This document shows positions 1,124-38,239 of a stretch of 64,000 nucleotides of DNA, one piece after another. Origin of the DNA: Escherichia phage vB_EcoM-ZQ3; sequence record MW630116.1, one strand, 5' to 3'. Each line of letters begins with the position of its first letter. The first letter of the stretch is position 1. Under the pieces are notes generated by a model. The model was not told the origin of the DNA, made no database searches, and saw nothing but the letters and a program-made list of their open reading frames with translations. A program made the translations under genes and the position numbers.

Positions 1124-2808
1124 AATCATTTAAATTAAATCGTGTTCGTTATCAAAACATCATGTCGGTAGGTGGGAATCCTATTGACATCCAATTAGAT
1201 AAAGTCCAAAAGACATTAATCACTGGTAAAAATGGTGGTGGTAAATCTACGATGTTAGAAGCCATTACTTTCGGACTTTTCGGTAAACCATTTCGTGATG
1301 TTAAGAAAGGGCAAATCATTAATAGCACGAACAAGAAAGAGCTCTTAGTTGAGCTTTGGATGGAATTCGATGGTAAAAAATACTTCATTAAACGTGGCCA
1401 AAAGCCCAATATTTTCGAAATCTCCGTTGACGGTGTTCGTCTTGATGAATCTGCCAGCAGTCGTGACTTCCAAGAAGAATTTGAACGTAGCATCGGAATG
1501 TCATACGCGTCTTTTAAACAAATCGTTGTGCTTGGGACGGCAGGGTATACCCCTTTCATGGCTCTTAGCACCCCTGCTCGCAGAAAACTTGTCGAAGACC
1601 TTTTAGAAGTTGGCACACTCGCTGAAATGGATAAAATCAATAAGTCTCAAGTTCGAGAACTTAATTCACAGGGACAAGTTCTCGATGCCAAGAAAGATGG
1701 TGTTATCCAACAAATTAAGATTTATAACGAGAATATCGAACGTCAAAAGAAATTATCTGGTGATAATGTAGCGCGTCTACAGAATATGTATGACGACCTA
1801 GCCAAAGAAGCTCGTTCATTAAAAGCAGAAATCGAAGAAGCTAATGAGCGACTACTTAATATCGTTCTTGACGAAGACCCTACTGAGGCATTCAACAAGA
1901 TAGGACAAGAAGCATTCTTGATTAAATCTAAAATCGACTCGTATAACAAAGTTATTAAGATGTATCATGATGGTGGTACATGTCCTACTTGTGCATCGCA
2001 GTTGCACCAGGGTGATCCTATTGTCTCTAAGATTACCGATAAGCTTCATGAATGTAATCACTCATTCGAGCAACTTACATGTCACAGAGATAATCTGAGT
2101 GTCCTAGTGGACGAATATAGAGCTAATGTTAAGACTAAACAGGACCTTGCATCTGATATTCGTACCAAGAAACAAGCAATGATTGCCACTATTGATAAAG
2201 CTAAGAAAGTTAAAGCTGCAATAGAACAAGCCTCAGCTGAATTTATCGACCATGCTGATGAGATAGCTTTGCTTCAAAAAGAACTTGATAAAATCATTAA
2301 AACAAAATCTGATATCGTTCTTGAAAAATACCATCGTGGTATTATCACAGATATGTTAAAAGATTCTGGTATTAAAGGTGCTATCATTAAAAAATATGTG
2401 CCTCTGTTCAACAAGCAGATTAACCATTATCTTAAAATCATGGAAGCTGATTACGTGTTTTCTATTGACGAAGAATTCAATGAATCTATAAAATCACGTG
2501 GCCGTGAAGAGTTCAGTTATGCTTCATTTAGTCAAGGTGAAAAGGCACGTATCGATATCGCATTGTTGTTTACATGGCGAGATATTGCTGAAAAGGTCTC
2601 TGGTGTTAGAATCAATACATTAATTATGGACGAAGTCATGGATTCCGCGACTGATTCTGAAGGTATTAAAGCTATTTCAACAATTCTTAACTCTCTAACC
2701 GATGCAAACGTGTTTATAATTAGTCATAGAGACCATGACCCACAAGCTTATGGACAACATCTTCAAATGAGCAAAGTTGGACGATTTACGGTAATGACTG
2801 TTTCATAA
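1120..2808 (+). CDS. 46: recombination endonuclease ATPase subunit gp46 (Rad50/SbcC-like)
   Basis: 562 aa; Walker A GKNGGGKST, CPTC zinc hook, SQGE signature, LIMDEV Walker B; T4 gp46 size and position. Confidence 0.93.
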   Translation: MKSFKLNRVRYQNIMSVGGNPIDIQLDKVQKTLITGKNGGGKSTMLEAITFGLFGKPFRDVKKGQIINSTNKKELLVELWMEFDGKKYFIKRGQKPNIFEISVDGVRLDESASSRDFQEEFERSIGMSYASFKQIVVLGTAGYTPFMALSTPARRKLVEDLLEVGTLAEMDKINKSQVRELNSQGQVLDAKKDGVIQQIKIYNENIERQKKLSGDNVARLQNMYDDLAKEARSLKAEIEEANERLLNIVLDEDPTEAFNKIGQEAFLIKSKIDSYNKVIKMYHDGGTCPTCASQLHQGDPIVSKITDKLHECNHSFEQLTCHRDNLSVLVDEYRANVKTKQDLASDIRTKKQAMIATIDKAKKVKAAIEQASAEFIDHADEIALLQKELDKIIKTKSDIVLEKYHRGIITDMLKDSGIKGAIIKKYVPLFNKQINHYLKIMEADYVFSIDEEFNESIKSRGREEFSYASFSQGEKARIDIALLFTWRDIAEKVSGVRINTLIMDEVMDSATDSEGIKAISTILNSLTDANVFIISHRDHDPQAYGQHLQMSKVGRFTVMTVS

Positions 2809-2834
2809 ACGCTTTAACACGATGTGGTTATAAT
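2808..2834 (+). promoter_or_regulatory. putative MotA-dependent middle promoter; -10 TATAAT sits in the loop of a perfect 8-bp hairpin (2821-2843)
   Basis: Mot-box-like aacGCTTTA 2808-2816, 12-nt gap, TATAAT 2829-2834; inverted repeat gatgtggt/accacatc. Confidence 0.4.
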
Positions 2835-2850
2835 GACCACATCAAATTAA

Positions 2851-3051
2851 ATGGAGAACAACATGGAGTATTCAACTGGCCAACATCTTCTCGTTGTCCC
2901 TGAAATTAAAAAATATGTTTTGACCAATACGTTTTCAGGTGAAGAACATATTGTTACTGAACAAATGCTCAAATCTGCTTTTAAAGATGAGTATAATAAA
3001 ATAATGTCTAATCGCAATTCCGCATGGACAGTTACCGACTTCTACGAATAA
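2851..3051 (+). CDS. hypothetical small protein (alternative start 2863)
   Basis: 66-aa ORF between genes 46 and 45; RBS-like ggaga before the ATG at 2863. Confidence 0.5.
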   Translation: MENNMEYSTGQHLLVVPEIKKYVLTNTFSGEEHIVTEQMLKSAFKDEYNKIMSNRNSAWTVTDFYE

Positions 3052-3063
3052 GAGAGAAATAAT

Positions 3064-3480
3064 ATGTTTACTACTGCTAAAGGTTTCACTGCTGCTGATC
3101 TGAAAGTTACTTCTATCCGTACTGACGCTAACCCACATAACCATAATCGTGTTCGTAAAGCATGGGTCCTGCATTGTGATGACGTAAGTGCTAAAAAACT
3201 CCAATCTTTGCCACAAGAAACTCGTTTTATGATTTATGGTTTTATTGATAACGATGTATCTGATATGTGGATTCATCTGATGCGTAAGCACTATAAAGAT
3301 TCTATTGAAGCCGGCGGAAAAATCGTTCTTGATAAAGATGGTTCTGAGCGTCTGGAAGATTTCTACTGTGTTGATGCCGACGAACAGCTAATTGCAGCTG
3401 GCGAAATTGTTGCTTCTAAAATTCCAGAATATATTGAATCACTGCCTGAAGCTATTAAAAAGCAAATGGTTGCTGCATAA
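3064..3480 (+). CDS. hypothetical early protein at the position occupied by rpbA in T4
   Basis: 138-aa ORF with RBS agagag; highly-expressed-type codon usage; synteny only. Confidence 0.65.
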   Translation: MFTTAKGFTAADLKVTSIRTDANPHNHNRVRKAWVLHCDDVSAKKLQSLPQETRFMIYGFIDNDVSDMWIHLMRKHYKDSIEAGGKIVLDKDGSERLEDFYCVDADEQLIAAGEIVASKIPEYIESLPEAIKKQMVAA

Positions 3481-3522
3481 TAAATTTGTTATAAACTTTG
3501 AATTGTCTTGAAAGGAAATAAA

Positions 3523-4209
3523 ATGAAACTGTCTAAAGATACTATCGCTATTCTGAAAAACTTTGCCTCTATTAACTCCGGCATTCTGCTGAGTCAAGGT
3601 AAATTTATTATGACTCGTGCAGTTAATGGCACCACTTATGCGGAAGCAAATATCTCTGATGAAATTGATTTTGACGTAGCACTTTATGATTTGAATAGCT
3701 TCTTAAGCATTTTGAGTCTAGTGTCTGATGATGCCGAAATTTCAATGCACACCGATGGCAATATTAAAATTGCAGATACACGTTCCACGGTTTATTGGCC
3801 TGCCGCTGACAAGAGCACCATTGTTTTTCCTAATAAGCCAATTCAATTCCCAGTGGCTTCTGTGATTACTGAAATTAAAGCCGAAGACCTTCAACAATTG
3901 CTTCGAGTTTCACGTGGTCTTCAGATTGATACAATTGCTATTACAAATAAAGATGGTAAAATTGTTATCAATGGCTATAATAAAGTTGAAGATTCTGGAC
4001 TAACCCGTCCTAAGTATTCTTTGACTCTTACCGATTATGACGGTTCTAACAATTTTAACTTCGTAATCAATATGGCTAATATGAAAATCCAGCCAGGTAA
4101 CTATAAAGTAATGTTGTGGGGAGCTGGTGATAAAGTTGCAGCCAAGTTTGAAAGCCCTCAAGTAAGTTATGTTATTGCGATGGAAGCCGATTCTACTCAC
4201 GACTTCTAA
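3523..4209 (+). CDS. 45: sliding clamp gp45
   Basis: 228 aa from ATG 3523 (RBS aaaggaa); N-terminus MKLSKDT... matches recalled T4 gp45. Confidence 0.93.
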   Translation: MKLSKDTIAILKNFASINSGILLSQGKFIMTRAVNGTTYAEANISDEIDFDVALYDLNSFLSILSLVSDDAEISMHTDGNIKIADTRSTVYWPAADKSTIVFPNKPIQFPVASVITEIKAEDLQQLLRVSRGLQIDTIAITNKDGKIVINGYNKVEDSGLTRPKYSLTLTDYDGSNNFNFVINMANMKIQPGNYKVMLWGAGDKVAAKFESPQVSYVIAMEADSTHDF

Positions 4210-9016: not shown

Positions 9017-9652
9017 ATGAAAACTACTCCTATTACTATCGCTATTGACGCAATCATAAAACAAGCTTCTTCTTTGGCCGCTATGGCCAAAGTAATTAGT
9101 CAAAACCCTGCTCGTTATAATGCTATTCTAGAAACTCTTCGACGCCCAGGACTTAGTAATTATGAAAGCCGAGTAATTATTACAGGTGTTGGTAAGAATG
9201 CTAATATTGCAACTAAAGCTTCTGAGACATTTGCTTCACTCGGTATCCCGAGTATGTACTTGAACACTGGGCATTATTCTCACGGTGATGCAGGATTCAT
9301 TGCGCCTAATGATGTGTTGATTCATATTAGTCGTTCTGGTAAAACTGAAGAAATGATAGGCGTGGCTAAGCATCTTAAAATGATTCGTCCGAACGTCAAA
9401 CAGATTCTGTTGCATTGTAACCCGGACATTCCACAAGAATACGAAGCTCTTTTTGATTATACGTTCTGTACAGGCATCGCAGTAGAGGTTGATGAGAATT
9501 CTCTGGCTCCGACCATGTCCACTACATTGTTGTTAGCGCTTATCGATACGTTTGCTATCAACCTTTCGTCTGAACGTGGATTTACCTCTAATGACTTCCT
9601 TAAGTTCCACCCTGGCGGTGCACTAGGTGCCATGTTACGAGGCGAACAATGA
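9017..9652 (+). CDS. SIS-domain sugar-phosphate isomerase, KdsD/GutQ-like D-arabinose-5-phosphate isomerase (no CBS domains)
   Basis: VGKNANIATKASETFASLGIPS...HGD...ISRSGKT and LAPTMSTT...FHPGGALG closely parallel the KdsD SIS core, including conserved Lys and His. Confidence 0.8.
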   Translation: MKTTPITIAIDAIIKQASSLAAMAKVISQNPARYNAILETLRRPGLSNYESRVIITGVGKNANIATKASETFASLGIPSMYLNTGHYSHGDAGFIAPNDVLIHISRSGKTEEMIGVAKHLKMIRPNVKQILLHCNPDIPQEYEALFDYTFCTGIAVEVDENSLAPTMSTTLLLALIDTFAINLSSERGFTSNDFLKFHPGGALGAMLRGEQ

Positions 9653-9792
9653 AAGCAATAACAATAGGACTTTTACTATTGATGCTTGTCATGACTATCT
9701 ACTGGAGCTTAACGGCTCCAGTAATGATTCCGACTCTTATAATCGGATGGATTATGATTGGACTACAAGCAAAGTATGAATGCTTTAACTAG
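9649..9792 (+). CDS. possible 47-aa small membrane protein
   Basis: ATGA overlap with upstream stop; hydrophobic sequence; below the track size cutoff. Confidence 0.35.
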   Translation: MKAITIGLLLLMLVMTIYWSLTAPVMIPTLIIGWIMIGLQAKYECFN

Positions 9793-9833
9793 AATAGTGT
9801 ACAATACTCCTACTTACCAATGAGGACCACAAC

Positions 9834-11522
9834 ATGAAAAAAGCTGTTATTCTTGGTGCTGGACTGGCAACTCGTTTGTATCCAATAACGCATCATATTC
9901 CTAAGGTGCTTGTTAACTATAAACAAGACACTATTCTGAGCAATTTGTATACAATTTATTCTGACCTTGGCGCAGACGAAATTATTGTAGTAGTTCATTC
10001 AAAATTTGCTGAAACTGTTCGAGCTTATTGTGAGCAAGAAGGGTTCAATGTGACTATTCGTACAGTTGATGAAGCGTATGGTTCTGCTTATGCTCTTGCT
10101 AAATTACACAAAGATTTAAACGGCCATAATGTAATTGTTAACTGGTGTGATATTATTCCTGATTTTGGTTCGTGGTCTTGGAATGTTAACGCAATCTATG
10201 TTAAGGGTGACGAATGTCGATATAATTTCGACGGTGAAAATATCACTAATGTAGGTTCAACAGGTGGTAATGTTGTAGGAATTTATCAGTTCAAAGACTG
10301 GGAATTCTATATGGGTTCTACTGATGAGGAAATTCATGAATACTGCAAAGGACGTGATTTCGTAGAATTCCTTTACGGCAGCGCATTCAATAAATCAGAG
10401 CTTATGAATATCATCGACCTTGGTGATATGCCTAAACTTGAAAAAGCTCATGAAGTTCGTGAACTTAATCGTAGTTTTAATGCAGTTGAAATTGGCGAAG
10501 AAACGGTAACAAAGATTGCTTTAACAGAACAGGGCGTTGCACTTCAAAAAGATGAAGTCAATTGGTATAAGAAAGTTAAATCAGATTCAGTTCCACGGAT
10601 TGTAAGTTATCATCCTGGCGGCCACTTTATTATGGAACGTATTAAAGGTAAGCCGGCATTTGAATATATTAAATCCAAATCAAGTCTTGCTCGTCCACAA
10701 ATTGTTGATGCAATTTTAGATGCACTGAAATTCAGCACAGACACTTATTTTGTAAGTCCTGAAACTGTTCGTCGTGATTTCACTAAAGAGTTCTATACGA
10801 AAGTTATTGATCGTTGTGAAAGTATTCAACCATTGATTGATTCATTTGGTAAAATCACACATGTGAACTACACTAAGATTGGGCGTCTGAAGCCAATGCT
10901 GAAACAAGCTTTAGAACACCTTATTCGTTATCATAACCGTTCTCAGGGACAGTACTCTGTTATTCATGGTGACCCGAACTTCAGTAATACTATGATTACT
11001 GATAATGGTGAAGTCAAGTTTATCGACCCTCGTGGATATTTTGGTGAAACCAAGATTTATGGGCCAAAATTGTATGATGAAGCTAAAGTGCTTTATGCTG
11101 TTTCAGGTTATGATGAATTCAACGCTAATCCGACTTGGGGACAGTTTACTATTGATGAAACAACTTGTAATGTGACTATTAACATCAATCCGTTAGTTTA
11201 CAAATATGGAAAGATGAGTTCGTTTAACGAGTATCATCATTTGGCAGTGGCAATTATCTGGATTGCATTGGGTGGTTATTTCAAGAATAATCCACTTAAA
11301 GCGGTAGCCGCATATTATAAAGGTATGGAACTTCTGACTAAGCAATTACGTAACATGGGCCGTGTACTTCAGGACGGCTCTATTAGTTATGACGTAGCAG
11401 AACCTGTAACGGCTACTCTGATTACAAAAAATCCTGGTAAATGGGTACTAACTGATAAAGAAACTGGTGTTTCTTATCGTCCAATCGGTGGCGATATCAC
11501 TCATCAATGGGAACGAATCTAA
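9834..11522 (+). CDS. bifunctional sugar kinase / sugar-1-phosphate nucleotidyltransferase
   Basis: N-terminus AVILGAGLATRLYPIT (RmlA/GlmU-type NTase motif); C-terminal HGDPNFSNTMIT and KFIDPRG (APH/choline-kinase-like Brenner motif). Confidence 0.8.
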   Translation: MKKAVILGAGLATRLYPITHHIPKVLVNYKQDTILSNLYTIYSDLGADEIIVVVHSKFAETVRAYCEQEGFNVTIRTVDEAYGSAYALAKLHKDLNGHNVIVNWCDIIPDFGSWSWNVNAIYVKGDECRYNFDGENITNVGSTGGNVVGIYQFKDWEFYMGSTDEEIHEYCKGRDFVEFLYGSAFNKSELMNIIDLGDMPKLEKAHEVRELNRSFNAVEIGEETVTKIALTEQGVALQKDEVNWYKKVKSDSVPRIVSYHPGGHFIMERIKGKPAFEYIKSKSSLARPQIVDAILDALKFSTDTYFVSPETVRRDFTKEFYTKVIDRCESIQPLIDSFGKITHVNYTKIGRLKPMLKQALEHLIRYHNRSQGQYSVIHGDPNFSNTMITDNGEVKFIDPRGYFGETKIYGPKLYDEAKVLYAVSGYDEFNANPTWGQFTIDETTCNVTININPLVYKYGKMSSFNEYHHLAVAIIWIALGGYFKNNPLKAVAAYYKGMELLTKQLRNMGRVLQDGSISYDVAEPVTATLITKNPGKWVLTDKETGVSYRPIGGDITHQWERI

Positions 11523-11908
11523 TGCACCGTGTAGAAAACATGCTTAATCTTTGTTTTGATGTCGATGATTGTATAACAGAGTGGAATAACAATCGTGATT
11601 ACGTGAACTTCAAACCAGACGTCGAAATGGTGTCTGCCATTAATGCCCTGTATGATGCAGGGCATACCATAACGCTTTACACTGCTCGCGGTATGAAGTC
11701 AGTCGGTCCTGGTCGTATAGCAATTGACATTCTCCCAAGTCTGATTCAGAACTTGGCAAACATTGGATTGAAGTACCATAATTTGCTAACACATAAACCA
11801 GTATATGATTGGATTATCGACGATAAAGCTATGCGTCCTGACGAATTCAAAGCTCTTATGAATAAAGGCGAATTCGAAACATTTAAATCATATAAACCGA
11901 ATCTATAA
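11522..11908 (+). CDS. small HAD-superfamily phosphatase
   Basis: TAATG overlap; candidate HAD motifs FDVDD (I), LYTARG (II), K in THKPVYD (III), IIDDK (IV). Confidence 0.65.
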   Translation: MHRVENMLNLCFDVDDCITEWNNNRDYVNFKPDVEMVSAINALYDAGHTITLYTARGMKSVGPGRIAIDILPSLIQNLANIGLKYHNLLTHKPVYDWIIDDKAMRPDEFKALMNKGEFETFKSYKPNL

Positions 11909-11964
11909 TAATTTAAGTAAGACCTGCAAAAACCATCGCGTCAATTAACGTGAGATGCAAAAAA

Positions 11965-13125
11965 ATGAATACCTTTAAAATCGGAACGAATTTTGATTTA
12001 GCTCTTCTTGATAAAATCGTAGAGCTCAATAAAACTTATCCTAATAGCTTGATAAATGAAGTATACGGCTCTACAAGAGAAATGGCTTTTGTAGCAGCCA
12101 GACCTGATTTTAGGCTTCCTGACGTTGACAAAAAGATGTTAGAAGATTATGTTAAACGTTGTAACGAATTAGGTATTTGCTTTAACTATACACTCAACAC
12201 GATAAATCCTGGTTCAAAAAGAGAACTAGTTGAGTGGAAGAAGAAAGCTATTCAGGATTATGTTCAGTATCTTTGGTCAATAGGCGTATGGCGTATTACT
12301 ATCGCTAACCCTGTTGTTATGGAAATTGTTCGTGAAGTCAATAAAGACATTGAGATTGAAGTTTCAACAATTCTACATGTTGATGCTGTAACTCAAATCA
12401 AATACTTGCATGACCAGTATAATATCAAAAAGGTCTGCTGTGGAATTCATAAGAACCGTTCAGTTTCTTTCCTGAAGCGTGCAGCAGAGTTTTGCAATAA
12501 GAACAATATAATATTTGAAGTTCTCGTAAATGAATTCTGTTCTAATGCCGGTAAAGGGTATACAACACATTGTAGCTATCGTGACTCTTGCTATATTTTC
12601 CATAGCACAGATGTTACAGTAGATGATGCTAAATCCTTAAATGGATATCCAATGCAACACTGCATTAAAGCTCGTGATACAGACCCATTTAACTGGTTGA
12701 GAACTCGTTTTGTTCGTCCTCAAGATTTGAAACTTTATAATGATATTGGTATCACTCAATTCAAAGTTTCAGGACGTACAGGTAGCACAGACTACATTTT
12801 GAAAGTTCTTGAAGCTTATGCTTCTGAAAAATTTGAAGGTAATTTGTTGGAATTGTGGAAGCCTTTAGAGACCATTTTCACTCTTGAAAATGAGACCGAG
12901 TTTTCACATACGGTAAATATTGAAACCTCTTTGTTAGATGGCTTTTTAGAAAAAAGGTGGTTCAAACATCCAGATTTCGATTGTGCTAATGAAATCTGCG
13001 GGACGACGTGTACATATTGTGAAAGATATTATAAACGTCAGTTATCTAAAAATGGGTTATCAGAAAACTCTATATCTATTATTGATATAACTAACTCTGA
13101 CGACGCTTTGAGGTACCCAGAATGA
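11965..13125 (+). CDS. Cys-rich enzyme of uncertain family (possibly peptidase-U32-like Fe-S TIM-barrel protein)
   Basis: 386 aa from ATG 11965; cysteine clusters EFCSNAGKGYTTHCSYRDSC and C-terminal CANEICGTTCTYC; QFKVSGR resembles the U32 KIEGR-type motif; assignment tentative. Confidence 0.75.
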   Translation: MNTFKIGTNFDLALLDKIVELNKTYPNSLINEVYGSTREMAFVAARPDFRLPDVDKKMLEDYVKRCNELGICFNYTLNTINPGSKRELVEWKKKAIQDYVQYLWSIGVWRITIANPVVMEIVREVNKDIEIEVSTILHVDAVTQIKYLHDQYNIKKVCCGIHKNRSVSFLKRAAEFCNKNNIIFEVLVNEFCSNAGKGYTTHCSYRDSCYIFHSTDVTVDDAKSLNGYPMQHCIKARDTDPFNWLRTRFVRPQDLKLYNDIGITQFKVSGRTGSTDYILKVLEAYASEKFEGNLLELWKPLETIFTLENETEFSHTVNIETSLLDGFLEKRWFKHPDFDCANEICGTTCTYCERYYKRQLSKNGLSENSISIIDITNSDDALRYPE

Positions 13126-13283
13126 TTTCTAGAAAAACTTTTAACCACCAACTTAATGAAGAGATTTTGACTACGAAAATTAACAGCAACGAACAAATTC
13201 TTAAAAAGGCCCTGATGGGCCTGTTTGAAACTAAAGCGGCTAAAGTGATTAAAGAAACCTGTTCAACTAGAATACTATGCTGA
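13122..13283 (+). CDS. possible 53-aa small protein
   Basis: ATGA overlap with upstream stop; no homology recognised. Confidence 0.3.
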   Translation: MISRKTFNHQLNEEILTTKINSNEQILKKALMGLFETKAAKVIKETCSTRILC

Positions 13284-13359
13284 TGCATTTCTTCATAGTG
13301 TTCTTGGAAGTATCGATGCTGAAGCTTTACGTTATATCAACATTGTCAAGAAATTCAAA

Positions 13360-13385
13360 TAAGCTTTACGAATTGAGTATATAAT
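13360..13385 (+). promoter_or_regulatory. putative MotA-dependent middle promoter
   Basis: taaGCTTTA box, 11-nt gap, TATAAT 13380-13385; aagctttacg also at 13322. Confidence 0.45.
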
Positions 13386-13404
13386 AAATTGTATTGAGGT
13401 AAAC

Positions 13405-14121
13405 ATGGGAAAACATAACACAATGAAATATATCAAAGCCGCAGATTTTCAAACCGCATTTAAAGCAGTCAATCGTGAAATTTTAGAAAACCCGGAATTC
13501 GTAACTGATTCTCGTATTGGACGTTGTAATGAAATTGGGTCTATGACAGTAGTTGTTGATACCCCTTCATCATTCAAAATGACCGACCCACGTATTAATC
13601 GCATCTCTTATGAATATGCTGAAGATTTCTGGAAGTTTATGATTTCTGGTGGTACCAACGCAGAAGAAGCGTTTAAGGCATATCCTAATGTCGCTAAATT
13701 TATTTCTAAACCAAAATCAGATGTTTTGCCTGCAAACTTCAACACTTTCTATGGTCCACGAATTGCGGCCCAGTTACCAGCTCTTCTAAAAGAACTTAAA
13801 GAGAAGCCTAACTCTCGAAGAGTTGTGTTCCAAATTCTAGAAAGTTCTGATCAGGCTTTGCTTGATTCAGACGAAACGCTTGAATATCCATGTACTGACT
13901 CAGTGACTTATTATATTCGTGATGGTAAGCTTTATACCCACTGTCATATGCGTTCTCAGAACTGTGCTGTTGTTATGCAGTTGGATTTTTATCTCCAAGG
14001 AAAATTACTTCATTATATCGCTAACGAATGCGGTGTAGAAGTTGGTGATTATACTCATACCATGGTAAGTGCCCATGTGTTTGAACGTGATTTTGATTAT
14101 GTTAAAGGATTCCTTGACTAA
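13405..14121 (+). CDS. thymidylate-synthase-fold pyrimidine-modifying enzyme, divergent dCMP hydroxymethylase (gene 42)-like
   Basis: 238 aa; NSRRVVFQI, YPCTDSVTYYIRDGKL and SAHVFERDF parallel the T4 gp42/TS motifs SRRGIMIY, FMCTNTVQYLIRDKKI, SLHVYSRHF. Confidence 0.8.
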   Translation: MGKHNTMKYIKAADFQTAFKAVNREILENPEFVTDSRIGRCNEIGSMTVVVDTPSSFKMTDPRINRISYEYAEDFWKFMISGGTNAEEAFKAYPNVAKFISKPKSDVLPANFNTFYGPRIAAQLPALLKELKEKPNSRRVVFQILESSDQALLDSDETLEYPCTDSVTYYIRDGKLYTHCHMRSQNCAVVMQLDFYLQGKLLHYIANECGVEVGDYTHTMVSAHVFERDFDYVKGFLD

Positions 14122-15020
14122 TGGCTATTTTCCGCGTACCTATCTTGAGTATGCGGTCTTATGAAACTGGACAGTATGCTATCCTTAAGGATGGCAACTT
14201 CCAACTTCATTTGCACCGTGCTAATCCGGGTGATGTGATTACATATCCACGTAATGCATCTGATATTAAAGAATGCGAACGTCTTTTTCCAGAATTTAAG
14301 TTTGTTCCATTATGGTATAAAGATAACGCGTATAACACTCGTAAATATTTCTGGTCTGAAAATGAATTTGTGGTTGATTCATTAATTGCTTATTATGATT
14401 GTGATTTTCTAATCACAGATATCACTGGATATGACGGTGCTTTTGATGTGGAATTCAATTTCAATATCACTGCAGACCCTAATAAACCACGTTTTTATAT
14501 TGACGAATTCTTAAAAACCGATATGTTGTCGGTTAATCGTTCACTTCAAACTACTGTGTTGAATAAACGTCAAAAGGAAGTGCTGGTTAACGCTGGTGCC
14601 GATGGTAATAAGATTATCGTAACCCAGAAAGTTATACGTCCTTCCATCATGCAGCGTCTTGTAGGTGATTTGGCTCCTATTCATCTAGATGGTATTTTTC
14701 ATCCATTTCGAATTAGTGACCCGTGCTATCGTTTTGAACAAGTGGTTGAATGTGCAATTCAATTAGGCCAACCGCTTTATATAACCGATCCAAATAATAG
14801 CTTCGACAGAAATAAGTATCCTGAAGAAGCGCTGATTCGAATTTTTAAACCAACTAAAACCGAGTACTATCAAATTCTTAAAGGACGTCCAAAGATTCAA
14901 TATTTCGAAAATCCTGAAGAAGTATTCCATCCAGGTCTTGGTGAGTTCATCTACTTTAATGCTTTAATTTCTTCGCCGTATAATATACCTAAATACGAAG
15001 ATGTCGTAATCGAGGAATAA
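14121..15020 (+). CDS. hypothetical protein (299 aa), function unknown
   Basis: TAATG overlap with the TS-like gene; no recognised motifs. Confidence 0.75.
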   Translation: MAIFRVPILSMRSYETGQYAILKDGNFQLHLHRANPGDVITYPRNASDIKECERLFPEFKFVPLWYKDNAYNTRKYFWSENEFVVDSLIAYYDCDFLITDITGYDGAFDVEFNFNITADPNKPRFYIDEFLKTDMLSVNRSLQTTVLNKRQKEVLVNAGADGNKIIVTQKVIRPSIMQRLVGDLAPIHLDGIFHPFRISDPCYRFEQVVECAIQLGQPLYITDPNNSFDRNKYPEEALIRIFKPTKTEYYQILKGRPKIQYFENPEEVFHPGLGEFIYFNALISSPYNIPKYEDVVIEE

Positions 15021-15021
15021 A

Positions 15022-15570
15022 ATGGCTAAAATTATTTTAGTAGATGGCCCGGATAATGCCGGTAAAACAACTTTCATTAATGACATAATGGAAATTAGTG
15101 AAAGATATGTAAAGATTGATTTCCCTAAACGAACAGTTGACGGACGTTTCGATGTTAAGTCTCGAAATGAAGTTGGCTGTTTCGAAACGATGTTGAATTA
15201 TTTAGACCCTACTAAGATTTATCTGTTAGATCGTGGATATATTAGTAACTGGGTTTACGGACGTATTCGACAAGATGCGGACTCGGTTCTTGACGTTTAT
15301 GAACAGGATTATGTTCGTCTTTGCCAAAACCATGATGTGTTCACAATTATTTTAACACGTAACGAAATGACTGAAAGTTTTGAAGACGACCTTATTACTT
15401 TGTCTTCATTCGGTTTTAATACAGTAATTTCATATTTTGAAGAGTTTGCAATCCATAACGAAATCCAAACGTATCAATTACTTAATCATGATGGTGCTAA
15501 CAAAGTTATAGGATTTAATGCAAGCGAACGTAATAATTTGATTACAGAAATTATCAAATGGGCTCGTTAA
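15022..15570 (+). CDS. P-loop kinase (nucleotide/nucleoside kinase-like)
   Basis: Walker A GPDNAGKTT near N-terminus; LDRGYISNWVYG resembles dNK/TMK-type motif. Confidence 0.8.
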   Translation: MAKIILVDGPDNAGKTTFINDIMEISERYVKIDFPKRTVDGRFDVKSRNEVGCFETMLNYLDPTKIYLLDRGYISNWVYGRIRQDADSVLDVYEQDYVRLCQNHDVFTIILTRNEMTESFEDDLITLSSFGFNTVISYFEEFAIHNEIQTYQLLNHDGANKVIGFNASERNNLITEIIKWAR

Positions 15571-32696: not shown

Positions 32697-32714
32697 GGGC
32701 TTCGGCCCTTTTTG
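32697..32714 (+). terminator. rho-independent terminator
   Basis: gggc-ttcg-gccc followed by T5. Confidence 0.75.
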
Positions 32715-32737
32715 CTTTAGATTTCGGATGATAGAAT
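32711..32737 (+). promoter_or_regulatory. MotA-dependent middle promoter upstream of gene 39
   Basis: perfect Mot box TTTGCTTTA 32711-32719, 12-nt gap, TAGAAT -10. Confidence 0.55.
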
Positions 32738-32759
32738 ACCTTCATAACGAGGAGACAAC

Positions 32760-34577
32760 ATGATTAAAAATGAAATTAAGGTATTGTCAGATGTAGAACA
32801 TATTAAGAAACGCAGTGGCATGTATATTGGTTCTTCGGCCAAAGAAGCCCACGAGCGTTTTTTGTTTGGTAAATATCAACAAGTTGAATATGTTCCTGGT
32901 CTGGTTAAATTAATCGATGAGATTATTGACAACTCGGTTGATGAAGCTATTCGTACATCATTTAAGTTTGCAAATAAAATTGATGTGCAAATTAAAAATA
33001 ATCAAGTTTCGGTGGAAGATAACGGACGTGGTATTCCTCAAGGTTTAGTTACCGACCAAACAGGTGAACAAATTCCTGGGCCTGTAGCAGCCTGGACTAT
33101 TCCAAAGGCTGGTGGTAACTTTGGCGATGACTCTGAACGCAAGACTGGTGGTATGAACGGCGTCGGGAGTAGTTTAACTAATATCTTCTCTACGTTGTTT
33201 ACAGGCATCACGTCAGATGGCGAAAATGAAATCACTGTTAACTGTTCAAACGGAATGGAAAACAAATCATGGTCTTCTAAGAAATCTAAAGGTAAAGGCA
33301 CTAAAGTAATCTTCACTCCTGATTTCACTTCATTTGAAGAGCATAATTTATCTCAAATTTATTTAGATATTACTTTAGACCGACTTCAAACATTGGCAGT
33401 CGTTTATCCTGATATCAAGTTCACATTTAATGGTAAAAAGGTTGATGGTAATTTTAAACGATTTGCTAAACAATTTGGTGAAGATAACATCATTCAAGAA
33501 AATGATAAAGTCTCTATAGCATTCACAACATCACCAGATGGCTTCCGTCATTTAACTTATGTGAATAACATCCATACTAAAAATGGTGGTCATCATGTTG
33601 AATGTGTAATGGATGATATCTGCGAACATCTTTTGCCCGGCATTAAAAAGAAATATAAGGGTATTGAAGTCACTAAAGCTCGTGTTAAAGAATGCCTCAC
33701 AATGTTGATGTTTATTAGAGACATGAGCAACATGCGTTTTGATTCTCAGACTAAAGAACGTTTAACGTCAACGTATGGTGATATTCGTAATCATATCCAA
33801 TTAGATGCTAAGAAAATTGCTCAGGCACTTCTTAAAAACGAAGCCTTGATTATGCCTATTGTTGAAGCAGCATTAGCTCGTAAATTGGCGGCAGAAAAGG
33901 CTGCAGAAACTAAAGCAGCTAAAAAGGCAACTAAAGCTAAGGTTCATAAGCATATTAAAGCTAACCAATGTGGTAAAGATGCAGATACGACATTGTTTTT
34001 AACAGAAGGTGATTCGGCAATTGGTTATCTCATTGATGTTCGTGACCGTGAACTACACGGCGGATTCCCATTACGTGGTAAGGTGATGAATAGCTGGGGT
34101 ATGTCATATGCTGATATGATGAAGAACAAAGAGCTCTTTGATATCTGTGCTATCACAGGTCTTATTCTTGGTGAAAAGGCAGAGAATACAAACTATCGTA
34201 ATATTGCAATTATGACCGATGCCGATCATGACGGTCTTGGAAGTATTTATCCGGCTTTGCTTGCTTTCTTTAGTAATTGGCCTGAATTGTTTGAACAAGG
34301 ACGTATTCGCTTTGTTAAAACGCCTGTAATTATTGCACAAATTGGCAAAACTCAAAAATGGTTTTATACTGTAGCTGAGTATGAAGAAGCTAAAGATACA
34401 CTGCCTAAGCATAGTATTCGATACATCAAGGGATTAGGCTCCCTTGAAAAGTCAGAATATCGTGAAATGATTCAGAACCCTGTGTACGACGTAGTTAAAC
34501 TTCCTGAAAATTGGAAAGAACTCTTTGAAATGTTGATGGGTGATGATTCAGAACTTCGTAAAGAATGGATGTCCTAA
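32760..34577 (+). CDS. 39: DNA topoisomerase II large subunit, GyrB-like ATPase; uninterrupted (covers both T4 gp39 and gp60 segments)
   Basis: 605 aa; GHKL ATPase N-terminus; toprim region; single continuous ORF. Confidence 0.92.
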   Translation: MIKNEIKVLSDVEHIKKRSGMYIGSSAKEAHERFLFGKYQQVEYVPGLVKLIDEIIDNSVDEAIRTSFKFANKIDVQIKNNQVSVEDNGRGIPQGLVTDQTGEQIPGPVAAWTIPKAGGNFGDDSERKTGGMNGVGSSLTNIFSTLFTGITSDGENEITVNCSNGMENKSWSSKKSKGKGTKVIFTPDFTSFEEHNLSQIYLDITLDRLQTLAVVYPDIKFTFNGKKVDGNFKRFAKQFGEDNIIQENDKVSIAFTTSPDGFRHLTYVNNIHTKNGGHHVECVMDDICEHLLPGIKKKYKGIEVTKARVKECLTMLMFIRDMSNMRFDSQTKERLTSTYGDIRNHIQLDAKKIAQALLKNEALIMPIVEAALARKLAAEKAAETKAAKKATKAKVHKHIKANQCGKDADTTLFLTEGDSAIGYLIDVRDRELHGGFPLRGKVMNSWGMSYADMMKNKELFDICAITGLILGEKAENTNYRNIAIMTDADHDGLGSIYPALLAFFSNWPELFEQGRIRFVKTPVIIAQIGKTQKWFYTVAEYEEAKDTLPKHSIRYIKGLGSLEKSEYREMIQNPVYDVVKLPENWKELFEMLMGDDSELRKEWMS

Positions 34578-34604
34578 GCTCCTTCGGGAGCTTCATTTTA
34601 ATTT
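34577..34604 (+). terminator. terminator hairpin after gene 39
   Basis: agctcc-ttcg-ggagct then T-rich tract. Confidence 0.55.
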
Positions 34605-34619
34605 TAATAAGGCTTAATT

Positions 34620-35720
34620 ATGAAAGTTATGTTTATCCCATCTCGTGCAGTCCCATTTAATCCTGACCGTGTACAAGGTGGTCTTGAAGCAGTACATTTA
34701 AATGTGTTGAAATATCTTGTGTCCATCGGTGCTGATATTGATTATATCGGTTTTGATAATGACACATTTGGTGATTGGAAGGTTAATCATCATCCTGTTG
34801 GTCATCTGACTAAATTCAGTCTAGGTATGAGTTATACTATGGCTCGTAAGATTGTTGAACTAGCCGGCATCCATGAATACGATTTTGTTGTTACTATGGA
34901 AACGACTAAACTAACCGTTCAGGCAATTAAAGACGCAGGTCTCTCTAAAGTTCATAAGAATTTTATGGCAACACCATTTGAACCGGTATCTCGTGGCATT
35001 GTTCAAATTTGGGACCAGACTATTCAAATTCATAAGAATGGTGGTAAGAGTTATGCTCCTACTAAAGCCTTCCGTGAATTTGAACGCAAATATTGTTATA
35101 TGACTTCAGGTCTGACTGACAAAATTGATTACGATTATTGGCGAGCAAATCCGTTGTTTGAAGCCGAAGATTATCCGGTTATTTGTTTGAATGAGAAACC
35201 TGAAGTTCTTCCGGCGACTGATCTGATTATTAGTGCACAACGTTATGACACTAAAATGCGTCGTACTGATGTTGCTCTTGAAGCGATTAAAGCACTAGGC
35301 GAAAATGGTGTAGGATACTGTCCTAGTAAATGGGCACCACCGGCTAAGTATCCTGTTATTATTGATGCTCCACACAGTGAAATCATGGAACGTCTTAAAA
35401 CAGCTAAAGCACTTATCAATACGTGTCCTGACACGGGTACGGTAGAGAATAGTTCTATTGAAGCCATCTCTAAAGGTGTCCCTGTGATTCAGTTAGTTTT
35501 TAAGGATTATCCGCACGCGACATTCGAATATGACCCAGATACTGTGCGTGTAGAAATTGATTCCTCTACTCCTAAGAAAGAAGTAGTTGCGCTTTACACA
35601 AAAGCGGTATTAGAATTCACTGACACATACGAAGCTCGAGTTAAACGTGCTGAAGCAGTATGGAAGAAGTATAACCGAGATGCGGTTGTTGCGATGTGGG
35701 ATAAAATCTTCACAGCGTAA
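34620..35720 (+). CDS. putative GT-B-fold glycosyltransferase (candidate DNA sugar transferase)
   Basis: N-terminal GGLEAVHLNVLKYL; C-terminal GTVENSSIEAISKGVPVI resembles the GT4-type EX7E/donor-binding segment. Confidence 0.7.
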   Translation: MKVMFIPSRAVPFNPDRVQGGLEAVHLNVLKYLVSIGADIDYIGFDNDTFGDWKVNHHPVGHLTKFSLGMSYTMARKIVELAGIHEYDFVVTMETTKLTVQAIKDAGLSKVHKNFMATPFEPVSRGIVQIWDQTIQIHKNGGKSYAPTKAFREFERKYCYMTSGLTDKIDYDYWRANPLFEAEDYPVICLNEKPEVLPATDLIISAQRYDTKMRRTDVALEAIKALGENGVGYCPSKWAPPAKYPVIIDAPHSEIMERLKTAKALINTCPDTGTVENSSIEAISKGVPVIQLVFKDYPHATFEYDPDTVRVEIDSSTPKKEVVALYTKAVLEFTDTYEARVKRAEAVWKKYNRDAVVAMWDKIFTA

Positions 35721-35812
35721 ATCCTGAATCGCCTGAGGCACTATTACACATAAGATGATAGATTATATGGTCTTTAGTAATAGTGCCCTAGGAATCTACT
35801 GAAGAGAATATT

Positions 35813-36013
35813 ATGAGAACATATAACGTGGACTTGGAACTTTTTGATAAAGCAGTGCTCCGGGAATTCCGGCTTATCCAAAGATTTTTTGATATCGAGT
35901 CAGCAGAGTCCTTTAAAGAACGCTTTAAAGAAATTCGATATAAAATACAAACCGATACAGCTACTAAAGAAGAACTTCTTGAAGTAGCAGAAATTTTTAA
36001 ACGTAACTTGTGA
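35813..36013 (+). CDS. hypothetical small protein (rIIA.1 position)
   Basis: 66 aa upstream of rIIA. Confidence 0.55.
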   Translation: MRTYNVDLELFDKAVLREFRLIQRFFDIESAESFKERFKEIRYKIQTDTATKEELLEVAEIFKRNL

Positions 36014-36025
36014 TGAGAGAAAAAT

Positions 36026-38239
36026 ATGATTATTGAAACGGCTAAAGAAACGATTATTGGTTCAGGCGGTAAGAGCACAGCATTCACTATTCAAGGCAAT
36101 AGCAAAGTTTATAAGATTTTGTCTAATGACCTTTATACAAACAAAGAATTGGCTTGTGTACGTGAATTAATCACAAACTGTATTGATGGACAAATTCTTA
36201 ATGGTTGCACTGATAAGTTTATTGTTCAGGCTCCAGGTCGTTTAGACCCACGTTTTGTAGTTCGAGACTTTGGTCCTGGTATGAGTGATTTCACCATTAG
36301 AGGTAATGACGAAGAGCCAGGAATCTATAACTCATATTTTGCTTCAACTAAAACATCGAGTAACGATTTCATTGGTGGATTCGGACTCGGCTCTAAAGCT
36401 CCGCTAGCATATACCGATACATTTAACCTTACGTCTTATCACAACGGTGAAGTTCGTGGTTACGTAATCTACCAAGATGACACAGGTCCACAAATTAAGC
36501 CGACCTTTGTAGATAAGATGGGTCCTGATGACCGTACGGGTGTAGAAGTAGTTGTACCGGTTAACCCGGAAGATTTTGAAAAGTTCGCATCCGAAATTGC
36601 ATATGTTATGCGTCCTCTAGGTGATATTGCAGAAGTTCGTGGTGTTAAAGATATTAAATACTTCCCTGAATTTGACGATGTATATTTGGCCAAGGAAGCT
36701 CCATGGGGTGAACGCGGTAATATCATGGCTGTTTACGGTGGTATTGTATATCCAATCGGAAGTGTTATTAAAGAACAAACATGGATGATGACTCGATGCA
36801 CCACAGCTTATATTAAATTCCCTATGGGTGAACTAGACGTAGCTCCGTCTCGTGAAGCATTGTCATTTGATAAACGTACAGTAGCAAATATCCATAAACG
36901 CGTTGCAGAAATTGATGCAAAATTATTTGCTGAAGATTCTAAGAAATGGATTGATTGTAAATACCCGCGTCATGTATTCCGTGAAATTGATTCTCTTGGT
37001 TATACCGCTCGTAAATACATGGAAAAGGCTGGGTCTAATATTGAATCACTGAAATACTCTAAAGAACAACTAACTTATTCTGAGTTGTACAAACGTTTTA
37101 AAATGGGGCCTGAGTGGTGTAATCTTGGCGTCGTATATGATATCGTTGAATCCCCTCGTCTTCGTCGTATTCGTGAAAGTGGTAGCTCATCATCGACCAT
37201 TTCAATTAACAGCCTGATTGGCATTAACATTAAAAATGTTGAAATCGTTATTGACGACGTTAAGGGACGCGTTCCATTAATGCGAGCTCTTAATTCAATT
37301 GAAATGTCTAAAGACGAGGTTAAATTAACTGGTAAAGTTCCACGCGGTTTTGGTAAAAGTGTACTATTCGTTGACCCTACAGACGAAGATGCAATGAAAC
37401 TTCTGGAACGCCTTAAAGTTATCTTTGATGGCGACAACATTAACATGTACAAGACTTCAGAGCTTTTACAAATCGTTAAGCCATGGATTGAAGTCAGGAA
37501 ACGGACTAATGAGCCTCGTCCTAAATCGCCAAGTGCTCATCGATTCTTTAAGAATGAAAACGACGTTTGGGTATCAGAAGATCTCTTTATTCCAGCGAGT
37601 GAAGCAGATGAAATCCAAGGTTATGCTATAGTTCGTAATCGTTCTAATGCTGAATGTCTTGACGCAGATAAAGGTTGGTTGAACTATGACTCCAATTTCT
37701 TGACCCGTATTGCTGATTTGTCAGGTATTAAAGAGTTCACTGTAGTTCGTCCACAGATTGCTAAGAAAGTTCGTAAACTTGGTGAAGTAGAATGCTTGTT
37801 CGAAAAATCAATTAATGACTATATTACGCTAATCGATAAAGTGGATTATGATGAGTATGTATCACCAAGTCGTAGAGCACAGCCTTATTTGAATCATATT
37901 ACTCGTAATGAAGAGCTTAACTTCCTTAGTAAGTATTTTAGCTCTAAAAACAAAGAAATCAGTAAAGATTTTGCAAAACTCTCAACAGTAAATAATCGTT
38001 GGGGATGGAATCGATTCGCAGGTGCTGAAAACAGAGATCTGAACAGGAAGTTAGAATTGTGTGCTAAAATTTTCGATAAGCTTAAAGATAATGCTTACGA
38101 TAATGATGATAAAATGGTTATTGAATTCGAAACCAATTATCATATTGTGTCAGAATACATGGGACGACGTGGTACTCTTTCTAAAGAACAGGTCGCTCAA
38201 ATCGTTAAATTCATGAAGGCCGTGGAAGCGGCCAAATAA
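36026..38239 (+). CDS. rIIA: rIIA protein (GHKL ATPase-like N-terminal domain)
   Basis: 737 aa; ELITNCIDGQ and GGFGLGSK motifs; followed by rIIB. Confidence 0.9.
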   Translation: MIIETAKETIIGSGGKSTAFTIQGNSKVYKILSNDLYTNKELACVRELITNCIDGQILNGCTDKFIVQAPGRLDPRFVVRDFGPGMSDFTIRGNDEEPGIYNSYFASTKTSSNDFIGGFGLGSKAPLAYTDTFNLTSYHNGEVRGYVIYQDDTGPQIKPTFVDKMGPDDRTGVEVVVPVNPEDFEKFASEIAYVMRPLGDIAEVRGVKDIKYFPEFDDVYLAKEAPWGERGNIMAVYGGIVYPIGSVIKEQTWMMTRCTTAYIKFPMGELDVAPSREALSFDKRTVANIHKRVAEIDAKLFAEDSKKWIDCKYPRHVFREIDSLGYTARKYMEKAGSNIESLKYSKEQLTYSELYKRFKMGPEWCNLGVVYDIVESPRLRRIRESGSSSSTISINSLIGINIKNVEIVIDDVKGRVPLMRALNSIEMSKDEVKLTGKVPRGFGKSVLFVDPTDEDAMKLLERLKVIFDGDNINMYKTSELLQIVKPWIEVRKRTNEPRPKSPSAHRFFKNENDVWVSEDLFIPASEADEIQGYAIVRNRSNAECLDADKGWLNYDSNFLTRIADLSGIKEFTVVRPQIAKKVRKLGEVECLFEKSINDYITLIDKVDYDEYVSPSRRAQPYLNHITRNEELNFLSKYFSSKNKEISKDFAKLSTVNNRWGWNRFAGAENRDLNRKLELCAKIFDKLKDNAYDNDDKMVIEFETNYHIVSEYMGRRGTLSKEQVAQIVKFMKAVEAAK

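Follow-up and report, generated by a model that had tools for sequence, protein, structure and literature searches.

The gene between genes 39 and rIIA.1 of a Mosigvirus genome encodes a GT-B glycosyltransferase, probably the second DNA arabinosyltransferase

Background

The alpha- and beta-glucosyltransferases of phage T4 are GT-B enzymes that glycosylate hydroxylated cytosine after replication with a UDP-sugar, and the beta-alpha-GT of T2 and T6 adds a second glucose. The DNA of RB69 is modified in another way: according to Lee et al. (NAR 2026), it contains mono- and di-arabinosylated 5-hydroxycytosine (5hoC), not hmC, and 5-hydroxy-dCMP is made by a ThyA homolog. In their proposal, the first transferase is gp46:47 and the second is gp3 (ORF003c), “beta-arabinosyltransferase 2”; a paper on the Durham collection likewise assigns the second transfer to an ORF003c-type gene. 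ORF003c had earlier been proposed as a DNA arabinosyltransferase on HMM/HHpred evidence (Thomas et al. 2018). Assays within this family are described for the Acinetobacter phage DLP3: with UDP-arabinofuranose (UDP-Araf) as donor, purified gp76 and gp77 together attach a third arabinose to RB69 DNA in vitro, each is inactive alone, and the pair gives no product on plain 5hoC DNA (Lee et al. 2026).

Arabinosylation of 5-hydroxycytosine, a hypermodification of phage DNA that was defined only recently, makes restriction enzymes, CRISPR-Cas and DNA glycosylases less effective, and the number of arabinoses appears to tune which defences are evaded. In the Mosigvirus NP, the di-arabinosyl form accounts for about 80% of cytosines. 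In Bas46, according to a paper that cites the result, deletion of “the arabinosyltransferase Aat” sensitised the phage to a plasmid-borne defence; the citing paper does not specify which transferase is meant.

We consider here the gene at 34620..35720 (+ strand) in a 64,000-nucleotide stretch of Escherichia phage vB_EcoM-ZQ3 (MW630116.1), referred to below as the window, which is a Mosigvirus (RB69-like) genome. The literature already covers the gene, its fold and likely role, and a crystal structure (2018, 2025, 2026), and nothing in this report is scientifically new. Its value is in annotation: the function is missing in Pfam, NCBIfam and PHROGs despite a crystal structure and three papers, and the second sugar in a very common group of coliphages that are therapeutic candidates is most likely due to this gene.

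The gene, its neighbours and its relatives

The gene begins with ATG, ends with TAA and encodes 366 amino acids; a Shine-Dalgarno-like TAAGG / AAGGC, read from the sequence at 34609..34613 (+), lies 7 nt before the ATG. The upstream neighbour on the same strand is the unsplit topoisomerase II large subunit gp60+39 (605 aa, 32760..34577), with which it probably forms a co-transcription unit. Downstream are rIIA.1 (66 aa, 35813..36013, +) and then rIIA (36026..38239, +). The original prediction placed the gene between gene 39 and rIIA, apart from the sugar-synthesis cassette, and this is correct with the detail that rIIA.1 precedes rIIA; the sugar/nucleotide cassette (9.0-15.6 kb) lies 19.6 kb upstream. 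It was also right that T4 has no such gene at this position, where it carries 60, 60.1 and mobA. The rIIA.1/gene 39 slot of Dhakavirus JS98 is about 590 bp long and unannotated (NC_010105.1, locus 2423-2982, minus strand), and its ORFs of 107 and 53 aa are unrelated to the glycosyltransferase. Since T4 carries other genes there and JS98 unrelated small ORFs, the gene 39/rIIA.1 junction is a variable slot.

The ORF is full-length in 209 phage records, and an alignment of 11 diverged homologs, each 35-44% identical to the window protein, has 48 invariant columns. Pairwise Nei-Gojobori comparison of five Mosigvirus alleles gives dN/dS of 0.03-0.12 with dS up to 0.34, so the gene is under strong purifying selection, and a chance reading frame is ruled out by these three observations taken together. 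Amino-acid substitutions among the Mosigvirus alleles concentrate in residues 95-191, and the nucleotide identity among them falls to 88.7% at 35100-35399. The variable residues overlap a segment of low confidence in our structural model (residues 116-187, pLDDT < 50) and could be where the N-terminal domain faces the acceptor.

The region is 97-98% nucleotide-identical to Mosigvirus genomes, the nearest being that of Escherichia phage HY126. RB69 ORF003c/gp3 (NP_861693.1) is the ortholog, with 99.2% amino-acid identity over 366/366 residues. Both RB69 ORF003c and the HY126 glycosyltransferase match the window gene in length and in the position between gene 60+39 and rIIA.1; they differ from it by 2-5 conservative substitutions, none at an invariant residue, and no functional distinction is apparent. 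Proteins at least 95% identical are present in 155 Escherichia/Shigella (Mosigvirus-type) phage records, RB69 among them, while homologs of about 43% identity occur in 55 Acinetobacter T4-like phages with two copies apiece, compared with the single copy in Mosigviruses. A tblastn search at E <= 1e-5 matched Mosigvirus-type and Acinetobacter phage records only, and no T4, T2 or T6 record. Loci of the ORF003c family in IMG/VR similarly come from Mosigvirus and Acinetobacter phages only; a word-seeded search of 5.8 billion proteins gave 5 clusters, and a full HMMER scan of 1.84 billion proteins gave 12 representative clusters at E <= 1e-3. The spread of the family is extremely narrow. One record named “Tegunavirus” contains a homolog of less than 60% identity, and is either a third cultured lineage or a naming error.

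In the existing databases the family is poorly described. The protein matches PHROG 8302 over residues 1-366 (E = 8.5e-223), a group labelled “unknown function”, and the 60-odd GenBank annotations listed for orthologs are mostly “hypothetical protein”. Several are misnamed, as DNA alpha-glucosyltransferase (HX01), ATP-binding protein (JQD51) or GDP-mannose-dependent PI mannosyltransferase (308Ecol101PP). The ortholog of ChristianSchoenbein is annotated as a putative hmC-arabinosyltransferase, and the current 5-hydroxycytosine chemistry is reflected in none of these annotations.

A separate observation concerns Shigella phage JK45 (MK962757.1, 598-2293), where the full 366-aa gene is followed by a 136-aa 3'-terminal fragment (1791-2201), and the 92-nt hairpin-containing spacer described below is repeated exactly after both. 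At the nucleotide level the fragment does not exactly match the full gene of JK45 itself; either the gene has undergone a genuine partial tandem duplication, or mixed alleles have produced an assembly artefact.

Fold and sequence signals

The PDB entries 9iqz (apo) and 9ir0 (with UDP), released on 2025-07-16, are crystal structures of a phage HY126 glycosyltransferase, which the depositor named [quoted passage not shown]. The crystallised construct differs from the window protein by 5 substitutions (about 98.6% identity), and 0/5 fall on the 48 invariant columns. The fold and UDP binding of the HY126 ortholog are thus a matter of direct structural observation. Our own AlphaFold2 model, built on a six-sequence alignment, was poor (pLDDT 59) and was used for coarse fold matching, being unsuited to residue-level inference. 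A structure search had been suggested together with the original prediction, and Foldseek with this model returned the HY126 crystal structure first (TM 0.71). The other matches among the best 50 listed, those after the ortholog, were GT-B sugar enzymes at probability 1.00, including BshA, PimA, MshA, many UDP/GDP/TDP-sugar transferases and one UDP-GlcNAc 2-epimerase; among viral models, phage and giant-virus glycosyltransferases were matched. The ortholog crystal with UDP and the Foldseek matches both fit the two-Rossmann architecture of GT-B enzymes.

The HMM search suggested at the same time gave a divided answer. The protein had no match in Pfam at E <= 10, hence none above the gathering score, and nothing was found in the NCBIfam scan. 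A search of PDB sequences (phmmer and the family profile) gave no glycosyltransferase besides the HY126 ortholog. The family profile did have a weak match, P0015, which scores 31.9 bits against Pfam Glyco_transf_4 (cut-off 28.5), and hhalign of the family profile against P0015 gave 98.2%, E = 3.7e-14 over 341 columns, i.e., a full-length alignment. The crystal structure, the Foldseek matches and the profile alignment are three independent lines that establish the GT-B (GT4-like) fold, as originally proposed. Homology to T4 agt/bgt is not detectable by tblastn at E <= 1e-5, and Thomas et al. (2018) describe similarity to T4 alpha-GT at the HHpred level only.

The two segments that had been quoted as resembling the halves of GT4-type enzymes are indeed present, GGLEAVHLNVLKYL as residues 20-33 and GTVENSSIEAISKGVPVI as residues 273-290. 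The invariant residues of the family include G20-G21, R208, R214, E276 and E281; Thomas et al. (2018) aligned G20, an arginine (their Arg-207) and E281 to the residues with which T4 alpha-GT binds phosphate and ribose. The second Glu of the EX7E motif is the invariant E281, and the position of the first aligns to G273; the invariant E276 stands three residues further on, which results in E-x4-E. With the GT4-type GT-B enzymes (PimA, MshA, BshA) the window protein shares the two-Rossmann fold, the N-terminal GG loop, the NDP-sugar donor, the Arg/Lys phosphate binders and the C-terminal Glu on the nucleotide ribose. Unlike them, it escapes the Pfam and NCBIfam models and lacks the first Glu of EX7E, and it would use a DNA-borne sugar in duplex DNA as its acceptor.

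The replaced Glu could suggest that the protein is a non-catalytic or obligately partnered subunit, one that needs, for example, the in-cassette transferase, and the DLP3 paralogs are indeed active together only. We think it most improbable: all the nucleotide-binding residues are invariant, the HY126 ortholog binds UDP in the crystal, and Mosigviruses have one copy of the gene (one place per record).

The list of structural neighbours raises another question, namely, whether the acceptor is DNA at all. BshA, PimA and MshA, the closest of them, act on small molecules and lipids; one GenBank record, as noted above, says phosphatidylinositol mannosyltransferase, and the pI of the product is 6.3, not markedly basic. 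The enzyme might then transfer sugar to a protein of the phage or of the host, to a lipid or to a cell-envelope precursor, and merely share the UDP-sugar pool with the DNA pathway. Against this, the protein has no hydrophobic segment (maximum 19-residue hydropathy 1.07), the Acinetobacter phage homologs lie within the DNA-modification cassette, DNA is a substrate of the paralogs in vitro, and the family is restricted to phages with extra arabinoses on DNA. A non-DNA acceptor therefore seems to us scarcely credible, and we retain an arabinosyltransferase acting on DNA as the preferred reading.

Modification cassette and DNA chemistry

The cassette at 9017-15570 is complete and matches the published RB69 arabinosylation cluster gene for gene. 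All its genes are on the + strand, and the roles of four of them are taken from published work: a SIS-domain arabinose-5-phosphate isomerase (RB69 gp55 equivalent, 9017..9652); a bifunctional NTP-transferase and kinase that makes UDP-arabinofuranose (RB69 gp52:53 / HY126 AfhE equivalent, 9834..11522); a HAD-type sugar phosphatase (RB69 gp51 / AfhF equivalent, 11507..11908); and a thymidylate-synthase homolog, the 5-hydroxy-dCMP synthase (RB69 gp48 equivalent, 13405..14121). A Peptidase-U32-like protein (RB69 gp50 equivalent, 11950..13125) precedes the latter. It is followed by the in-cassette glycosyltransferase of 299 aa (RB69 gp46:47 equivalent, 14121..15020), proposed to be the base-proximal arabinosyltransferase, and by a thymidylate-kinase-like nucleotide kinase (RB69 gp45 equivalent, 15022..15570). 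We also note that the 280 nt between the U32-like gene and the ThyA homolog (13126-13404) contain no ORF of at least 80 aa, and that MotA-box-like matches (TGCTTTAA...TACAAT / TATAAT) are found at 9781-9805 and 14960-14984 (+), just upstream of the kinase/NTP-transferase gene and the nucleotide-kinase gene.

BLASTP found no similarity between the product of 34620..35720 and the in-cassette transferase, so that the two are not paralogs. The in-cassette transferase is far more widespread: it is present in 348 phage records from at least 14 host genera, and its carriers include Serratia phage LC53, Shewanella phage Thanatos, Dhakavirus and phages of Klebsiella, Yersinia and Proteus. In JS98 the cassette transferase is present and the ORF003c family is absent.

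This distribution bears on the order of the two transfers. Under the 2018 model of Thomas et al., ORF003c would be the sole or first arabinosyltransferase, placing the sugar straight onto the modified cytosine; it can be added that, of the two candidates, only the product of 34620..35720 shows recognisable GT4-like sequence signals. Nevertheless, the family is absent in Thanatos and LC53, which mono-arabinosylate their DNA and keep the in-cassette transferase, and more than 130 other cassette-bearing records also have that transferase and lack the family. The Acinetobacter paralogs, moreover, act on arabinosylated DNA and are inactive on plain 5hoC DNA in vitro. We consider the 2018 assignment very unlikely for this reason, and prefer the second transfer as the role of the gene.

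The number of copies of the family can be compared with the published chemistry. Thanatos and LC53 have no copy and show mono-arabinosylation; RB69, NP and Bas46/47 have one copy and show mono- and di-arabinosylation; DLP3 has two copies and shows tri-arabinosylation. The sugar count thus matches the copy number of the ORF003c family among these few chemically characterised phages.

Location within the Acinetobacter phages points in the same direction. DLP1 has two homologs in tandem directly behind the cassette kinase, with 43% and 41% identity to the window protein. Since they are inside the cassette, the separation of the Mosigvirus gene from its cassette is a lineage-specific rearrangement, and the link between the family and the pathway is ancestral or recurrent.

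Proposed function

We believe it very likely that the product of 34620..35720 is the second DNA arabinosyltransferase, acting on arabinosylated 5-hydroxycytosine. The gene would encode a soluble GT-B (GT4-like) Leloir glycosyltransferase that is supplied with UDP-arabinofuranose by the cassette genes at 9.0-13.1 kb. The unrelated in-cassette transferase (14121..15020) would put the first arabinose on 5-hydroxycytosine. The second enzyme would then bind UDP-Araf in its inter-domain cleft and pass another arabinofuranose to the 5hoC-linked arabinose in duplex phage DNA after replication. This would yield the di-arabinosylated cytosine that is predominant in the virion DNA of Mosigviruses, and di-arabinosylation would extend the protection of the phage DNA from host nucleases.

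For the family, DNA arabinosyltransferase activity is an experimental fact that concerns two Acinetobacter paralogs acting jointly. For the protein of 34620..35720 itself, we infer that it transfers arabinose from UDP-Araf to arabinosylated 5hoC; that the single-copy Mosigvirus enzyme does so alone is presumed, like its linkage and the timing of its expression. The original prediction of a DNA sugar transferase working with the cassette gains from the in-cassette Acinetobacter homologs and from the arabinose transfer by DLP3 enzymes in vitro. Its hmC acceptor should be replaced: this phage group uses 5-hydroxycytosine as the modified base, and the likely acceptor is the first arabinose, not the base.

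Compared with the T4 enzymes, which use UDP-Glc and 5-hydroxymethylcytosine, the window enzyme is proposed to use UDP-Araf and 5-hydroxycytosine; its functional analogue is the second transferase of T2/T6, which also places a sugar on a sugar. The likeness to DLP3 gp77/gp76 (ADLP1_075/_074 in DLP1) consists in common membership of PHROG 8302 and full-length identity of 43%/41%. The differences are that DLP3 has two tandem in-cassette paralogs, jointly required, and a tri-arabinosyl chain, whereas Mosigviruses have one gene 19.6 kb away from the cassette and a chain that ends at two sugars.

GT4-type enzymes are normally retaining. Lee et al. (2026) label the second transfer “beta”. It is tempting to suppose that a GT4-like scaffold with a degenerate EX7E forms beta-Araf on a DNA-bound sugar, in which case its mechanism may be out of the ordinary for this fold. 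One may also suppose that the Mosigvirus gene, relocated from the cassette to the hypervariable 39/rIIA.1 slot, could be there a separately exchangeable add-on that switches phages between mono- and di-arabinosylation. We regard these suppositions as rather doubtful, though worth stating; if true, an unusual mechanism or an exchangeable add-on would be reason enough for a new CAZy family or an evolutionary story. The identity of the gene would be the same in either case.

Expression signals, hairpin and regional mosaicism

A terminator-like hairpin AAGCTCCTTCGGGAGCTT with a TTCG loop and a T-rich tail (34576..34593, +) directly follows gene 60+39, 26 nt before the start codon of the glycosyltransferase gene. 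The 42-nt gap between the two genes contains no promoter-like site, and the late-promoter motif TATAAATA is absent near 34620..35720. Ahead of gene 60+39 there is a candidate middle promoter resembling a MotA box, TGCTTTAG...TAGAAT (32713..32737, +), which is a match to the consensus only; MotA-box matches in the window are not enriched over shuffles. From the promoterless gap and this MotA-box-like site we would tentatively say that the gene is probably expressed by read-through of the topoisomerase transcript.

The 92-nt spacer before rIIA.1 contains an inverted repeat (35732..35792, +). The original prediction correctly noted it 3' of the gene and gave its extent as 35743-35792; it actually starts 11 nt earlier. 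Its arms, 35732-35747 and 35777-35792, are 16 nt long and 88% complementary, with 29 nt between them; as RNA, the whole segment forms a stable hairpin (-28.5 kcal/mol, z = -4.2). No T-run follows, so it is not a canonical intrinsic terminator. Rfam has no match for it, and elsewhere in the window the hairpin arm has only weak relatives. Between alleles that differ at 6-19% of third codon positions, the spacer shows 0-2 differences, and in the AV109 allele a two-base change renders the stem perfect. Because recombination has made the whole region a mosaic, in which the identity of single patches is 68-100%, we did not count the conservation of the spacer as evidence of hairpin function. We take the hairpin as a stable RNA or DNA structure that possibly stabilises the 3' end.

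Endonuclease genes are found beside the topoisomerase gene in two related phages. In AV109 (OR352939.1, 1-108) a CDS annotated “homing endonuclease” stops at precisely the position that is the end of gene 60+39 in other Mosigviruses, and in HX01 (locus 3462-4145) an HNH endonuclease abuts the start of gene 39. Over the 5' half of gene 39, the window (32700-33900) shares only 68-80% identity with HX01. Mosaicism driven by endonucleases at the Mosigvirus topoisomerase gene recalls the mobA/60/39 split of T4.
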